From a virus (Duplodnaviria; Heunggongvirae; Uroviricota; Caudoviricetes), in IMG/VR virus record IMGVR_UViG_2737471860_000002, positions 1-26,886 of that record: 26,886 bases of DNA. One strand, given 5' to 3'. The stretch's first letter is position 1. Each line of letters starts with the position of its first letter. Below are positions 21,984 to 26,886 of this stretch, one piece after another. The position numbers and the translations under genes were made by a program. The notes beneath the pieces are model-generated. The model had not been told where the DNA came from and ran no database searches. It was given only the letters and a program-made list of their open reading frames with translations.

Positions 21984-22194
21984 TGAGTTTTTCCTTGTAC
22001 TTCTGGCACTGCCAGAAAATGTCCCGTGTATCCACGGAGTTCCAGCCACGCATGTAGTAGCTGGCGTGTGTGCCGTCATGGCCGGTATAGTCCAGCGGTT
22101 TCGGGGGCGGACCTCCGGCCATGCGGTGCAGAACCTCCTGACGCAGGCGGTCACGCCGCCCGGCTTTCAGTGAGGCATCCCAGCCTTTACCCAT
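21967..22194 (-). CDS. Small basic hypothetical protein (75 aa) immediately after the endolysin
   Basis: 8-nt overlap with the endolysin stop, consistent with translational coupling. Confidence 0.45.
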   Translation of the reverse strand: MGKGWDASLKAGRRDRLRQEVLHRMAGGPPPKPLDYTGHDGTHASYYMRGWNSVDTRDIFWQCQKYKEKLNAQNE

Positions 22195-22792
22195 ATCCCC
22201 CCCGCGTGGCGGACATGATGCCTGGAGGGGTATTGATGATTTCCAGACAGGCGTCGGTCAGCTTTTCCATGCGGTTAAACCATCCGTTCAGGTATTTGCC
22301 CTGGGCGGGTTTTGATTTGATGATGTCGGCATAAAAGCGGGAACGACGGACAATGCAGCGGGTCAGCAACCAGTCCGGGGTGGACAGGCTCACGGCCTTA
22401 CGGGTACGCGGGCCGATGATGCCGTCAGCATCCACATCAGCGGCTTCCTGCAAAATCCTGATGGCTTTTTTAACGCCATGCTGAACCGCCGCATCGAACA
22501 CAAACATCGCCACGCCATCAGGCCACTGGTCACATCCGGCAGGCAGCCAGTAATCGCGCCAGTAAATCTGCGCAACCTGTTCGCGGGTCAAATCCCTGAT
22601 GCGGGTATCCGGTTTGCCGTCGCCGTTGACATCAGTTTTGCCATCAATCACACCGTCGCGGCGGTCAGAAATGCCGTATTTGGTTTCACCGCCACGGTCA
22701 GTGGGGTCATTGACATAGACGCCTTCGATATCGGGACGCAGAATAAAATTCAGCGCATGCTCAAAGGCTGGGGAGAATTTTTGATTTTCCAT
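22187..22792 (-). CDS. Endolysin, GH108-type lysozyme with C-terminal peptidoglycan-binding domain
   Basis: 201 aa; N-terminal ...DIEGVYVNDPTDRGGETKYGISD... matches the GH108 signature (EGGY, NDP.D.GG.T..GI) as I recall it; first gene after the Mor-like gene. Confidence 0.75.
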   Translation of the reverse strand: MENQKFSPAFEHALNFILRPDIEGVYVNDPTDRGGETKYGISDRRDGVIDGKTDVNGDGKPDTRIRDLTREQVAQIYWRDYWLPAGCDQWPDGVAMFVFDAAVQHGVKKAIRILQEAADVDADGIIGPRTRKAVSLSTPDWLLTRCIVRRSRFYADIIKSKPAQGKYLNGWFNRMEKLTDACLEIINTPPGIMSATRGGYG

Positions 22793-22804
22793 AAAAGCAC
22801 CTGT

Positions 22805-22831
22805 GAAGCAGATTTAAACGTGGTCTGCTTC
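22805..22831 (-). promoter_or_regulatory. Hairpin (8-bp stem GAAGCAGA/TCTGCTTC, 11-nt loop) immediately upstream of the endolysin ribosome-binding site
   Basis: Inverted repeat read directly at 22805-22812 and 22824-22831. Confidence 0.4.
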
Positions 22832-22847
22832 ATGGTGCCGGAGGCAT

Positions 22848-22871
22848 AAAAAAAGCCGGATTTACCGGCTT
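22848..22871 (-). terminator. Intrinsic-terminator-like hairpin plus U7 tract directly downstream of the Mor-like gene; copy B of the duplicated 38-bp element
   Basis: Stem 22853-22859 pairs with 22865-22871; plus-strand A7 at 22848-22854. The wider element GGAGGCA-N-AAAAAAAGCCGGATTTACCGGCTTCA-N-TGA spans 22840-22877. Confidence 0.55.
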
Positions 22872-22877
22872 CATTGA

Positions 22878-23327
22878 TTAAGGGCGTCGTGGCGGACGAC
22901 GAACGGGGTGAGGCAGGTTCGGGGAGTGGTAGAACAAATCCGGCTGGTATTTATTACGCTCCAGACGCCGCATCCGTTTGATGGCCTTGTAGACGGTTTT
23001 ATACGTCACTCCGTAACGCTGAACCAGTTCAGGAATATTATGGCCGTTAAAATCACGCCAGATACGCATATCCCGGACAAGATTCTCCAGAATATTCCCC
23101 CTCGGAACATAAACCTGCATCCCGCCAATATGGCGACAAATCGCCACAACCAGCTCAAGGGAATGAGCAGGGTCTGCGCCAATCCGGGCCAGCTCTTTAC
23201 GCAGCAGTGCGTTCAGTTCAGAAAGTAACGCCGGATAAGCGGTGTTTTCCTGGTAATCGTTAAGATATTCCAGAACGCTGTCGTCCCGAAGGTCTTCGAA
23301 TAAATCCTGCTCTTTCATCTGTTTCAT
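22878..23327 (-). CDS. mor: Mor/C-family transcriptional activator
   Basis: 149 aa; strong resemblance by memory to Mu Mor (DLF.DL.DD..L..L, ALLAELN.LLR.EL.R.G.DPAHSLE.VVAIC.H.GG.QVY.PRG, RD.RIW.DFNG.N..EL...YGVT..TVYKAI.RMRR); lies directly after gemA as in Mu. Confidence 0.7.
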   Translation of the reverse strand: MKQMKEQDLFEDLRDDSVLEYLNDYQENTAYPALLSELNALLRKELARIGADPAHSLELVVAICRHIGGMQVYVPRGNILENLVRDMRIWRDFNGHNIPELVQRYGVTYKTVYKAIKRMRRLERNKYQPDLFYHSPNLPHPVRRPPRRP

Positions 23328-23875
23328 ACAGCAATTCTCCCGCTGTTTCGTGCGCGGGCATATGCACTGGTCAGTGCATCATAGCCGCGCAGCTCCCGCC
23401 CGGATGGGCTTACAGGTAAAGGCACACCATGTCGGGCAAAGGCTTCCCGGATGCAGCGCATATGCCACTGTTTGAGCGTTTCGAGCACAACCTGCAACGA
23501 TTTCCCGTGACACCAGGCCAGAGTGGAAACACCCTGGCCGCCATTACGTCTGGCCGTCAGGCGTTCAACGTATTTGTCCAGCGCGGCGTCGCTGCTATCA
23601 GCGACAAAGCCATCCTGAAACATCTGCTGCCAGATTTTATAAATCTTCTCGCGCGGTGTGACATACCCCTTAAAGCGACGGCGGGGATGTTTTTTCTGCT
23701 TTTTAAAACCGCGCTCTTTCATGGCATCGAGCACACGTTCCAGTTGTGCGACGGTCAGCTCGCGGCAACTGGTCTTGCCTGTGCACTGCACCAGAAAGGC
23801 GCGGTAAGTGTCATCGTCGAGTTGTAGATCACGACGGGCGACATGAATTAATTTAATCAGGGATGTGCGATTCAT
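23324..23875 (-). CDS. gemA: GemA-like protein (Mu gp16 family)
   Basis: ORF track gives a start at 23911; I prefer the ATG at 23875 (MNRTSLIKLIHVARRDLQLDDDTYRAF...), preceded by GGAGG. Position upstream of mor as in Mu. Confidence 0.65.
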   Translation of the reverse strand: MNRTSLIKLIHVARRDLQLDDDTYRAFLVQCTGKTSCRELTVAQLERVLDAMKERGFKKQKKHPRRRFKGYVTPREKIYKIWQQMFQDGFVADSSDAALDKYVERLTARRNGGQGVSTLAWCHGKSLQVVLETLKQWHMRCIREAFARHGVPLPVSPSGRELRGYDALTSAYARARNSGRIAV

Positions 23876-23895
23876 TATCGTACCTCCGAAAAAGA

Positions 23896-23915
23896 GGCGG
23901 TGCGGCAACACCGCC
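23896..23915 (-). promoter_or_regulatory. Hairpin (7-bp stem GGCGGTG/CACCGCC, 6-nt loop) followed on the minus strand by UCUUUUU, immediately upstream of the gemA RBS
   Basis: Inverted repeat read directly; terminator-like on the minus strand, and it also lies in the 5' leader of the plus-strand ORF. Confidence 0.4.
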
Positions 23916-23947
23916 AGAATCCACTCACTAAACAGAGGAAACTTTTT

Positions 23948-24214
23948 ATGAAAAACAGTGAACAGCCTTATGATGTTGCAGGGTATGTCATTGCCTCAAG
24001 GTTGCTGATACTCCTTGTCAGAAAGGGGCTGATTACCGCAGAGGAAGGCAAAACGATCCTCGAAGCCGCAGCAAGCGGAGCGGCAGAGGCTCCGGCATTG
24101 AGAACAACGAATAATCCCATTCTGCAAATATCACAGCTAATCACTGATACCATCAGTTTGTTAGACCAAGATTCTGATGAATATCAAAAGCCTCAGCCAT
24201 CTGAGCATCCGTAA
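23948..24214 (+). CDS. Hypothetical opposite-strand small protein (88 aa)
   Basis: ORF track gives 23900..24214; I place the start at the ATG at 23948, with AGAGGA 8-9 nt upstream. Mixed charged/hydrophobic composition. It is the only plus-strand candidate in the window, and its 3' end is convergent with and overlaps the next minus-strand gene by about 60 nt. Confidence 0.4.
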   Translation: MKNSEQPYDVAGYVIASRLLILLVRKGLITAEEGKTILEAAASGAAEAPALRTTNNPILQISQLITDTISLLDQDSDEYQKPQPSEHP

Positions 24215-24467
24215 GAATATCTTTATTTGATAGTCCCAGCCTGCGACGAATGTATTCCTCGCGGGCTGCTTCATTTTGTAGCGCCACGGCAGCTTCCACC
24301 TGGTTCATTTCACGGTTAATAATGCTCCGGACTTCTCTGGCGGTGAGGTCATGCTCAATACCATATTTAACGATATCGTGCATACGTTCCAGCATCTTTA
24401 AATTAGCCATGACGCCATCAATATCAACTGGTGTGAATTTCATTTCTTTATTCTCTGGTTTATTCAT
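24153..24467 (-). CDS. Hypothetical early-region protein (104 aa)
   Basis: Start placed at 24467 (MNKPENKEMKF...), preceded by AAGAGG 9 nt upstream; 8-nt overlap with the upstream gene. Confidence 0.55.
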   Translation of the reverse strand: MNKPENKEMKFTPVDIDGVMANLKMLERMHDIVKYGIEHDLTAREVRSIINREMNQVEAAVALQNEAAREEYIRRRLGLSNKDILTDAQMAEAFDIHQNLGLTN

Positions 24468-24642
24468 TTCGTAATACCTCTTCGCAATAAAAGATTTCAC
24501 TGGGATAACGTTTTTGTATGCGCTCCATCACCTGCATACACACCTGCTCTGTGGGCCAGATTTTTTCTGTTACCGGAATGGCATCACAGGCATCATTTCC
24601 ACAGGTGCCAACCAGCAGGACAAAGCCAATTAACTTAATCAT
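24460..24642 (-). CDS. Small Cys-containing protein with N-terminal signal/TM segment (possible lipoprotein, non-canonical lipobox)
   Basis: Start at 24642 (MIKLIGFVLLVGTCGNDAC...) with AGGAA upstream and an ATGATTAA-type overlap with the upstream stop. The longer track ORF would overlap the upstream gene by about 100 nt. Confidence 0.5.
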   Translation of the reverse strand: MIKLIGFVLLVGTCGNDACDAIPVTEKIWPTEQVCMQVMERIQKRYPSEIFYCEEVLRNE

Positions 24643-25177
24643 GCTCGCTGATTTCCTGTGTTTCCGCCGGAACTGGTGAATAATCAAGAATGAGATAGCG
24701 CAGGACGTGGTCGGTGATATTCCAGCCACTGGAGCCACAAATAAAACGACCCAGCCGGATATCGATATAAGCCATCACAAAACGGGGCATTCCCTGTTTG
24801 CACATCTCGTCATCCACTTCAGCAACGATGTAAACCGACTCGCAGGTCAGTACGCCTGTCGCAAATTCTTTTGCCAGTGCCGGAATGGCATTGCCTTCCA
24901 GCCAGGGCAAAGAGCGGCGGAACGCGCACCATTGAGCATCATCAACATCGGGGTGTTCAGTTGTTGCGTTTCGTCTTACTGGCGGCGTTGGACGAGGGCG
25001 CGGAACGTCATAAAATCCATTGCATTCAGTGAGAACTCCGGCATCAACCGCGTCACGCAGGAAATACACCATTGAGGAAGGTGGCATCTTCATTTTTTCA
25101 GCCAGAACCCCGCAGGTCAGACGCCCGTAAGCCCGTAATAATGTGCTGACCCCATTCAGAACTTTTGCATCAATCAC
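24635..25177 (-). CDS. Hypothetical early-region protein (180 aa), possible N-terminal HTH
   Basis: ORF 3 nt downstream of the 182-aa gene; no family recognised. Confidence 0.55.
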   Translation of the reverse strand: MIDAKVLNGVSTLLRAYGRLTCGVLAEKMKMPPSSMVYFLRDAVDAGVLTECNGFYDVPRPRPTPPVRRNATTEHPDVDDAQWCAFRRSLPWLEGNAIPALAKEFATGVLTCESVYIVAEVDDEMCKQGMPRFVMAYIDIRLGRFICGSSGWNITDHVLRYLILDYSPVPAETQEISEHD

Positions 25178-25180
25178 CGG

Positions 25181-25729
25181 TTATTCCTCCGTCAGTGCCA
25201 CAAATTCAGAATGTTTAATGCGCTGGCATTCGGCGGGAACCGGCCCCTTCACTTCGCCAGCCAGAAGGTACACCGCAAACAAAATGCTGAATCCGTCACG
25301 GCTGCGGTGCATCTCCCACACTGATTTGAGGTCGAACAGGTCAACGTCGGTAGCCACGTTAAGTTCATTGCACAGCCAGACCGGAAAATCCGGGTATTTT
25401 TCGAGCTGATTTTCACAGTCCCGGATGCGCTTCCCGTATTCACGGCCTGCCGGTATTGTCATATCCGGCATTGCCGCCCATAACTGAATATCGCCAATGA
25501 AAAGTGTCTTTGATTCAGTTGCCCATCCTTCCGGTGGTAAGCGGTTAAACCAGACACGCGTAACCCTCTCAGGCCCTTTGTCACCAGACAAAGACACACC
25601 GCTTGCTTTCACTGATTGCTGTAATAACGCAATAATCTCACCACGCTTAACAGAAACATCTTTCAGCCAGCGAATCGTGTAAGCGTTAGCGGCTGCGTCA
25701 CTCAGTTTAAAATAAGCACATGCTGTCAT
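25181..25729 (-). CDS. Hypothetical early-region protein (182 aa), Mu semi-essential-region-like
   Basis: First ORF after gam, separated by a 96-bp AT-rich intergenic region; no family recognised. Confidence 0.55.
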   Translation of the reverse strand: MTACAYFKLSDAAANAYTIRWLKDVSVKRGEIIALLQQSVKASGVSLSGDKGPERVTRVWFNRLPPEGWATESKTLFIGDIQLWAAMPDMTIPAGREYGKRIRDCENQLEKYPDFPVWLCNELNVATDVDLFDLKSVWEMHRSRDGFSILFAVYLLAGEVKGPVPAECQRIKHSEFVALTEE

Positions 25730-25825
25730 TTTATTTCCTCTGGTCCTGTTTCAGGCGCGAGTAGTCCCCTGACGCATCGCGCCATAACTAAACGAATGTG
25801 AATTAATTAAATATTAATGGTGGTA

Positions 25826-26350
25826 TTAAATACTGGCTTCCTGTTCAAACGGAATAATGGAAAAATCTTCAAGACCTGATTTAACTGTAATTCCGGCAAC
25901 ACCTGCGACCGCTTTCGGTTCCAGTAAAATCGCTTCTTTATTGATTTCCTGCTTCGTTCGAATAAAGCGTTGCAGGCCAAGACGCTCCAGCGTTTCCATC
26001 ACCGCATCCACACCGCGAATACTCACTGATGGCGGGCGTTGACGCCATGACACATCACCGGTGACAAGATTCGCCGTCTTCACTTTGCCGCCGTTCGTCA
26101 GTTCGTCGCGGTTCGCTTCACACCATCCCTGAACGCCTTTTGAAAGGGTTTCAATATCGGTTTTAATCGGTGCAATCCGGGCCGCAAATTTTTCCGTAAT
26201 TTCCGCGATGGCATCATTCATTTCCGTTTCCAGACGTGATGCTTCGCGCTGTAAATCCCCGATGCGTTTAATATCGGTAATCACCGCATCGCGGTTTTGT
26301 GGCACATAAGCCGCTGCGGCACTTTTGATACGTTTTGCTGGTTTAGCCAT
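25826..26350 (-). CDS. gam: Host-nuclease inhibitor Gam (Mu Gam, Ku-like DNA-end-binding protein)
   Basis: 174 aa, the length of Mu Gam, with N-terminal MAKPAKRIKSAAAAYVPQNRDAVITDIKRIGDLQRE... recognised as Mu Gam-like; AGGAGC RBS upstream. Confidence 0.8.
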   Translation of the reverse strand: MAKPAKRIKSAAAAYVPQNRDAVITDIKRIGDLQREASRLETEMNDAIAEITEKFAARIAPIKTDIETLSKGVQGWCEANRDELTNGGKVKTANLVTGDVSWRQRPPSVSIRGVDAVMETLERLGLQRFIRTKQEINKEAILLEPKAVAGVAGITVKSGLEDFSIIPFEQEASI

Positions 26351-26369
26351 AAATTAAAGCTCCTGTTAA

Positions 26370-26669
26370 TTAATATCCGCTGTATACAATGCTGGATACA
26401 GCTCGATTGCTTAATTCCATCTTTCGGGCAATGACATGAATATCCAGTCCTTCTTTATAAAGTTCACGACATAAATATTTGTCGTGTTCACTGATTCGGT
26501 ATACACACAATGATATTCCGTGCCTTCTGGCATGTGCCAGGAGGGCGGTTGTGGCGACTTTCAGTTTTTCCGCCATTTCTTCAACGGTCATTTTCCCGAC
26601 GTTGGCTTCGATAAATTCCCGGTCTTCGCGTGACCAGCGCTTACGATTACACTTCATGTCAGCCACCAT
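26370..26669 (-). CDS. Small HTH-type DNA-binding protein (99 aa)
   Basis: RWSREDREFIEANVGKMTVEEMAEKLKVATTALLAHARRHGI resembles a GcrA-like / sigma-region-4-like helix-turn-helix. Inference from pattern only. Confidence 0.5.
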   Translation of the reverse strand: MVADMKCNRKRWSREDREFIEANVGKMTVEEMAEKLKVATTALLAHARRHGISLCVYRISEHDKYLCRELYKEGLDIHVIARKMELSNRAVSSIVYSGY

Positions 26670-26855
26670 TCAGTACAGCAGAGGCTCGCGCAGTGATGCC
26701 GGAATATGCCGCAGCGATAACTGAACCGCTTTGAGGGCCAGCGAGGAATAACAGCAGCGCGCCCAGTCTTTTGCCATTAACCGGTAATCGCGCCAGATAC
26801 GCTGCCACATTTCACGGGCCTCAGGGTCTGATGCGCAGATGTATTCGCGGTCCAT
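26670..26855 (-). CDS. Hypothetical small early protein (61 aa)
   Basis: ORF abutting the next gene, in the position where Mu carries small kil-region genes; no family recognised. Confidence 0.4.
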   Translation of the reverse strand: MDREYICASDPEAREMWQRIWRDYRLMAKDWARCCYSSLALKAVQLSLRHIPASLREPLLY

Positions 26856-26886
26856 GACGTATTCCCGGCTTTGTTGAATAAATCAG

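Follow-up and report, generated by a model that had tools for sequence, protein, structure and literature searches.

We analysed a 26,886-nucleotide (nt) stretch of viral DNA (Caudoviricetes; positions 1 to 26,886 of IMG/VR record IMGVR_UViG_2737471860_000002), hereafter the window, with a focus on a block of four small genes lying between gam and gemA. The window is a Mu-like (Muvirus-type) prophage, read on the minus strand. An earlier reading of the letters alone (the original prediction) had listed four open reading frames (ORFs) of 182, 180, about 60 and 104 amino acids (aa) in this interval, and all four were confirmed, on the minus strand. ORF1 (25181-25729, 182 aa, ATG start) belongs to phrog_2260, and its family is named 'DUF5420' by the Prokaryotic Genome Annotation Pipeline (PGAP). 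ORF2 (24635-25177, 180 aa, GTG start) is a homologue of Mu gp11. ORF3 (24460-24642, 60 aa, ATG start) encodes a mini-protein with four cysteines and belongs to phrog_16556, and ORF4 (24153-24467, 104 aa, ATG start) is a homologue of Mu gp14 (formerly E15). The block is bounded upstream by gam (25826-26350, minus strand; Pfam Phage_Mu_Gam, E = 1.9e-42; 98% identity to Mu Gam) and downstream by gemA (23324-23875, minus strand; Pfam GemA, E = 6.8e-34; 81% identity to Mu GemA from residue 13), the start of which is likely the ATG at 23875, as in Mu. In Mu, this interval belongs to the semi-essential early region (PMC4553209), and the proposal that the block is the equivalent of that region is supported.

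Organization of the Four-Gene Block

The four genes were thought to overlap by 8 nt at every junction. We found this to be the case for ORF2/ORF3 (ATGATTAA) and ORF3/ORF4 (ATGAATAA), and not for ORF1 and ORF2, which are separated by a 3-nt gap (TAA-ccg-GTG). A Shine-Dalgarno-like motif precedes each of the four starts, within the end of the upstream gene, and within the block the minus strand showed no sigma-70-like promoter. Since the stops and starts overlap or nearly abut, co-transcription and translational coupling of the four genes are most likely. All four ORFs gave PHROG matches, with E-values from 3.7e-28 to 5.3e-103, and the ratios of nonsynonymous to synonymous substitution rates (Ka/Ks) against homologues were 0.41-0.47 for ORF1, 0.09-0.20 for ORF2, 0.11-0.20 for ORF3 and 0.34 for ORF4. 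The PHROG matches and the overall Ka/Ks range of 0.09-0.47 indicate that the four ORFs are genuine genes under purifying selection.

These assignments, namely ORF2 to Mu gp11, ORF4 to Mu gp14, ORF1 to the 'DUF5420'-named family and ORF3 to phrog_16556, overturn the original prediction that the products belong to no recognisable family. Its companion view, that all four lack a described function, proved correct, as no characterised function was found for any of them in Pfam, NCBIfam, PHROGs, PADLOC, the sequences of the PDB or the literature searched. Scans of all ORFs with Pfam, NCBIfam and PADLOC returned the Gp11_C domain for ORF2 alone, the remaining matches being weak or at chance level; the PADLOC defence models gave no match save a chance-level one for ORF4 (E = 0.015). 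Searches of PDB sequences with ORF1 to ORF4, using both single sequences and profiles, yielded nothing, the matches of ORF2 to MIF (E about 0.3-1) being attributable to chance. The literature searched for Mu gp11-gp15, Mup11-15, DUF5420, functions of the semi-essential early region and Mu anti-defence genes assigned a function to none of these ORFs, and PGAP annotates their homologues in Escherichia coli genomes as hypothetical proteins. Near-identical proteins are already held in public databases for ORF1 (99%), ORF2 (98%) and ORF3 (92%). The comparison with Mu gp10-gp15, to which the original prediction pointed, accounted for part of the block: ORF2 and ORF4 are homologous to gp11 and gp14, and ORF1 and ORF3 have no Mu counterpart.

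Mosaic Structure of the gam-gemA Interval

The gam-gemA interval was mapped in 17 Mu-like loci, including Mu, SfMu, Tongde, two E. coli prophages, nine IMG/VR contigs and the window. The gp11 gene was present in all 17 loci, at a conserved position in the early operon, and the other genes (an ORF1-like gene, gp12, gp13 or ORF3, an extra SfMu gene, gp14 and gp15) occurred in varying combinations of presence and absence. Locus L011 carries ORF1 and gp11 alone between gam and gemA, and locus L005, which is 96% identical to the window elsewhere, is without ORF1. An IS3-family insertion, with the transposase genes orfA/orfB on the opposite strand (4503-5707), lies beside the ORF3 homologue of locus L016, and a different ORF, of 129 aa, is found in locus L017. 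A survey of 5,426 complete E. coli genomes detected gp11-like DNA in 318 of them, ORF1-like DNA, for the most part diverged, in 220, and ORF3 in 49. Because gp11 is constant and the other genes appear in varied combinations, these comparisons indicate that the block consists of one conserved core gene, gp11, flanked by exchangeable cassettes, and that the interval is a mosaic hot spot where Mu-like phages exchange such cassettes. This pattern agrees with the classical view of this part of Mu as semi-essential.

Traces of gp12 were observed in two of the relatives. The gp11 homologue of Tongde (L003 2946-3497) ends in ...ALEQAEVTNGKQ, matching the C-terminus of Mu gp12 (...QKQAEVNNGKQ), suggesting a deletion in this phage that removed gp12 save for its last codons, which became joined to gp11. 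An unannotated remnant of gp12 is still present in SfMu (L002 2442-2909).

The Conserved gp11 Gene and Its Upstream Neighbour ORF1

ORF2 matched the Pfam family Gp11_C ('Phage Mu Gp11 C-terminal domain', PF25754) over the entire profile (positions 1-78 of 78) with a score of 133.5 bits (E = 3.3e-39), the gathering cut-off of this family being 27 bits. It also matched phrog_1949 (E = 5.3e-103), and it is 86% identical to Mu gp11 over 177 aa, that is, over its full length. A protein search with ORF2 and ORF4 concatenated returned solely gp11 homologues among the 120 matches listed. The AlphaFold2 model of ORF2 runs from three N-terminal helices through a short strand region and a disordered proline-rich linker (residues 51-90) to a beta domain (residues 113-165), the last of which was predicted better (predicted local distance difference test score, pLDDT, 81-87). 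We regard gp11 as probably a winged-helix DNA- or protein-binding factor, the winged-helix nature of its N-terminal domain being a reasonable guess from the model and not a result.

ORF1 matched phrog_2260 over residues 4-182 (E = 1.8e-37), and the distant family members P0144 and P0145 matched the same PHROG. The window protein shares 88% identity with a protein encoded by Yersinia phage Tongde and 65% with SfMu gp11, to which PGAP gives the name 'DUF5420 family protein'. The copy of Pfam-A used, apparently without a DUF5420 model, gave no match for ORF1 or for the 'DUF5420 family' proteins of SfMu and E. coli. The family is tiny, comprising 11 clusters at 90% identity among 5.8 billion proteins, and five representatives at 50% identity among 1.84 billion proteins, of which one, a repeat protein, is spurious. 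The remote homology searches and structure prediction suggested for the block gave a confident model of ORF1, and neither a relative in the PDB nor a confident model of ORF2. The AlphaFold model of ORF1, built from an alignment of only 12 sequences, showed a mixed alpha/beta structure with a pLDDT of 91.5 and a predicted template modelling (TM) score of 0.80, and a fold search with this model against the solved structures of the PDB returned no match. When Foldseek was run against predicted viral structures, three phage proteins of the same size matched ORF1, with TM scores of 0.68-0.75 at 16-18% identity.

We found that the ORF1-like gene, where present, always lies directly upstream of gp11. 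Relatives of ORF1 with 37% identity, encoded in distant Mu-like prophages, keep the same 3-nt gap before gp11, and the adjacency persists even where a DUF3164 protein replaces Gam. These relatives also keep the C-terminal motif P-x-EC-x-x-IKHSE[FY]VAL-x-EE. The constant pairing of the two genes is the sole functional lead for ORF1, and as synteny, which is not proof, it suggests that ORF1 is probably a functional partner of gp11. The idea that ORF1 is instead a distant homologue of Mu gp12, a protein of similar length and an alternative neighbour of gp11, was rejected, as hhalign gave it a probability of 0.5%.

A Four-Cysteine Mini-Protein Family

ORF3 matched phrog_16556 (E = 3.7e-28) and had no match in Pfam or the PDB. 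It fills the slot of Mu gp13 and has exactly the same length (60 aa); homology between the two was rejected, as BLASTP aligned them over 6 residues at E = 3.8, and gp13 belongs to phrog_5584. Mu gp13 contains eight cysteines and is zinc-ribbon-like, whereas ORF3 contains four. As 60-aa, cysteine-rich proteins encoded in the same slot, the two may be analogues.

Homologues of ORF3 formed 12 clusters in the initial protein search, and a scan of viral contigs for the invariant motif CG-x-DACDA identified 103 confirmed loci of the family. Searches by tblastn placed homologues in temperate phages of Aeromonas, Yersinia and Hafnia; in the non-Mu phages, the early-left operon closes with this gene, which follows a recT-like gene or a gene for a 170-aa protein and precedes xis/int. 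Cysteines and lipoprotein features were counted in 58 unique full-length members. Exactly four cysteines, with the spacing C-x4-C-x15-C-x17-C, were found in 58/58, a spacing that differs from the usual CxxC pairs. The invariant spacing of all four residues suggests a structural cysteine cluster, and four invariant cysteines are also a feature of Cys4 zinc-binding mini-proteins.

ORF4 and the Stretch Open on Both Strands

ORF4 matched phrog_6075 (E = 1.4e-42) and showed 71% identity to Mu gp14 over 99 aa. In the phage collection searched, its homologues were confined to Mu-like phages, and the gene was missing from the Mu-like loci L011, L016 and L017. Two further frames, both overlooked by the original prediction, lie between ORF4 and gemA. 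ORF5 (23948-24214, plus strand, 88 aa) is a homologue of Mu gp15 (phrog_8747, E = 1.2e-25) that converges on ORF4 and overlaps its 3' end by 62 nt, an arrangement also found in RefSeq Mu; it is 53-54% identical to Mu gp15, with the same length, no gaps and a Ka/Ks of 0.39. An alternative reading of the same DNA is a 61-aa, Mu_54-like ORF on the minus strand (23968-24153), which is coupled to ORF4 by TGATG and whose frame is open in both the window and Mu. This ORF is 40% identical to Mu_54 with one gap (Ka/Ks 0.45) and had no PHROG match. The reverse-strand gp15 is annotated in RefSeq Mu, whereas the updated GenBank record of Mu, AF083977.1, instead carries the forward-strand, 55-aa Mu_54. Taken together, the comparisons slightly favour the gp15 frame, a choice on which the Ka/Ks values cannot decide.

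Intergenic Elements and Flanking Genes

The intergenic region between gam and ORF1 (25730-25825) contains a stem-loop directly upstream of the block (25754-25783, minus strand), of the form GGCGCGA-TGCGTCAGGGGACTAC-TCGCGCC with a 16-nt loop and preceded by TTTTAATTAT. Its sequence hardly differs between Mu, SfMu, Tongde and many prophages, and diverged Mu-like prophages retain the stem-loop with one compensatory pair (GGCGT/ACGCC). Its position is constant, just downstream of gam (or of the DUF3164 gene) and upstream of whichever gene comes next. The element has no T-run, and its folding z-score was only -1.1; it had no Rfam match, and the Rfam scan of 22800-26886 returned nothing relevant. 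The possibility of a repeated operator was discarded, as the extra copies of the loop motif in other loci were chance matches within coding sequence.

A terminator-like hairpin lies 5' of gemA (23896-23915, minus strand), consisting of GGCGGTGTTGCCGCACCGCC followed by TCTTTTT, directly upstream of the gemA ribosome-binding site. This hairpin is conserved in Mu, where it falls in the stretch labelled 'semi-early promoter' in the Mu record (PMID 9454718). At 22187-22792 and 22878-23327, a lysozyme gene of GH108 type comes almost straight after mor, whereas E18-E20 and C intervene in Mu. The Mor homologue carries a 20-aa proline/arginine-rich C-terminal extension relative to Mu Mor.

Discussion

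The data presented above indicate that the block is probably the local version of the gp11-gp14 segment of a Mu-type early operon, belonging to the semi-essential early region. The four genes would be transcribed within the early operon, from the early promoter, after infection or induction, and their translation would be coupled. In such an operon gp11 would serve as the conserved nucleic-acid- or protein-binding factor, and the products of the cassettes around it would be small and non-essential, synthesised in the first minutes that follow induction, and would probably bind host or phage macromolecules rather than catalyse reactions.

Several observations weigh against parts of this proposal. 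Co-transcription and coupling are themselves read from the sequence, and none of the libraries searched linked the genes to a characterised family, a solved structure or a defence-related model. The AlphaFold2 model of ORF2 as a whole was of low confidence (pLDDT 57). Its N-terminal 62 residues matched HTH_20 (E = 0.066) and HTH_24 (E = 0.17) below significance, and the best matches of this model in a Foldseek search of the PDB (AldR, NMB0573, LrpC and AsnC, at E-values of 0.18-1.3) were not significant either. The more specific idea that ORF2 is an Lrp/AsnC-type regulator, with a winged helix-turn-helix followed by a small alpha/beta domain, was dropped, as there was no significant sequence or fold match. 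As for ORF1, Mu itself functions without this gene, and the partnership with gp11 is drawn from synteny. Because the last codons of ORF1 (TEE-stop) also make GGAGGA, the ribosome-binding site of gp11, some of the conservation at the ORF1 C-terminus may be at the nucleotide level.

One possible explanation for the variable genes is that ORF1, ORF3, ORF4 and/or gp15 are anti-defence or host-takeover genes whose products inhibit a host nuclease or immune system, as Gam does. We hold this as a tentative alternative, clearly less likely than the general reading of the block as an early-operon segment. It is consistent with the cassettes coming and going among otherwise near-identical Mu-like prophages and adjoining gam, and with the Ka/Ks of ORF1 being the highest in the block (0.41-0.47, as compared with 0.09-0.20 for gp11). 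The proteins are, moreover, small, early-expressed and devoid of enzymatic signatures, and the non-Mu homologues of ORF3 lie in the recombination/early-left operon near Lar-type restriction-alleviation and methyltransferase genes. However, Ka/Ks was below 1 for every gene, and the variability is equally expected of neutral or niche-specific accessory genes. The homology and fold searches gave no pointer to anti-defence or to superinfection exclusion, both of which are pure inference for this region. A narrower version, in which ORF1 and gp11 form a two-protein early module, ORF3 represents a Cys4 mini-protein family, and one or both inhibit host nuclease or defence alongside Gam, seems to us doubtful, more so than the anti-defence idea at large. 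If it were true, ORF3 would define an undescribed Cys4 mini-protein family common to transposable and integrase-type temperate phages.

A different role for ORF3 follows from the signal peptide that the original prediction ascribed to the 60-aa ORF, namely that of an early secreted lipoprotein that blocks a surface receptor or excludes superinfecting phage, like T5 Llp or Cor. The protein does have a hydrophobic N-terminus, conserved in the family, that runs into a cysteine (LLVGTC), as well as a lysine at position 3, and 25/58 family members fit the PROSITE lipobox pattern at that cysteine. Nevertheless, the full rule of PROSITE PS51257, which calls for a lipobox ending at a cysteine located at positions 15-35 and a lysine or arginine in the first seven residues, was satisfied by 0/58 members. 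In the window, the cysteine is at position 14 and is preceded by threonine at -1; across the family, the first cysteine lies at positions 12-15, the preceding residue is proline or threonine in 33/58, and lysine and arginine are absent from the first seven residues in 44/58. No start codon that would lengthen the N-terminus was available in 36/55 distinct genomic contexts. Furthermore, the N-terminal 24 residues are the best-conserved stretch of the protein, the reverse of what is seen in signal peptides, and the four cysteines keep an invariant spacing. We therefore consider an exported lipoprotein very unlikely and the signal-peptide reading unsupported. Most likely, ORF3 encodes a mini-protein that stays in the cytoplasm and relies on its four cysteines for its fold, through either a metal site or disulfides. 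Less probable still, to the point of being nearly negligible, is a reading in which the prophage is defective and certain of these ORFs are no genes but frames open by chance or decayed remnants. In its favour, one E. coli homologue of ORF3 carries an annotated frameshift and truncated copies also occur, and both strands are open in the stretch from ORF4 to gemA, for which the two Mu records give different annotations. The four ORFs are, however, intact and preceded by ribosome-binding sites, their PHROG matches (about 1e-28 or better) and Ka/Ks values are those given above, and their synteny is conserved in the isolated plaque-forming phages Mu, SfMu and Tongde.

The reading of the block as a Mu-type early-operon segment does not describe a new kind of system, as its genes are catalogued and found in hundreds of E. 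coli genomes. Despite the standing of Mu as a classic model phage, to our knowledge no function has been assigned to its genes between gam and gemA since the genome was sequenced. The present comparison separates the conserved core gene gp11 from the exchangeable cassettes and reveals the constant pairing of ORF1 with gp11, and it corrects the 'signal peptide' reading of ORF3 to that of a conserved four-cysteine mini-protein common to unrelated temperate phages. The main points of interest are the confident model of ORF1 without a relative in the PDB, the fixed ORF1-gp11 pairing and the occurrence of the four-cysteine family across different phages.

Among known systems, the closest is Mu gp11-gp15 (Mup11-Mup15, formerly E10-E15), which has the same position, strand logic and operon layout as the window. 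Mu differs from the window in that it is without ORF1, carries gp12, which the window does not, and has gp13 in the slot that is occupied here by the unrelated ORF3. Two other phages, Tongde (vB_YpM_Tongde) and SfMu (Muvirus), share with the window the order gam-'DUF5420'-gp11, but both carry a Mu-type gp13 where the window carries ORF3, and SfMu has in addition an extra 102-aa gene besides its gp12 remnant. The full block with ORF3 is found in E. coli Mu-like prophages (e.g., those of FDAARGOS_943, VL40 and 54214) at 89% DNA identity. In these prophages, ORF1 is either diverged (65% identical in FDAARGOS_943) or entirely missing, as in strain 54214, which otherwise matches the window at 96%, and ORF3 is frameshifted in one strain. 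Beyond the Mu-like phages, homologues of ORF3 with 40-55% identity are encoded by Aeromonas phage pAEv1818 (gp14), Yersinia phage vB_YenM_30.14 (gp008) and Hafnia phage Meifeng (gp50). These are integrase-type temperate phages that do not transpose, and in them the gene lies between recT-like or other early genes and xis/int; their ORF3 homologues show the same CG-x-DACDA motif and cysteine spacing as the window protein, and likewise have a start that overlaps the upstream gene.

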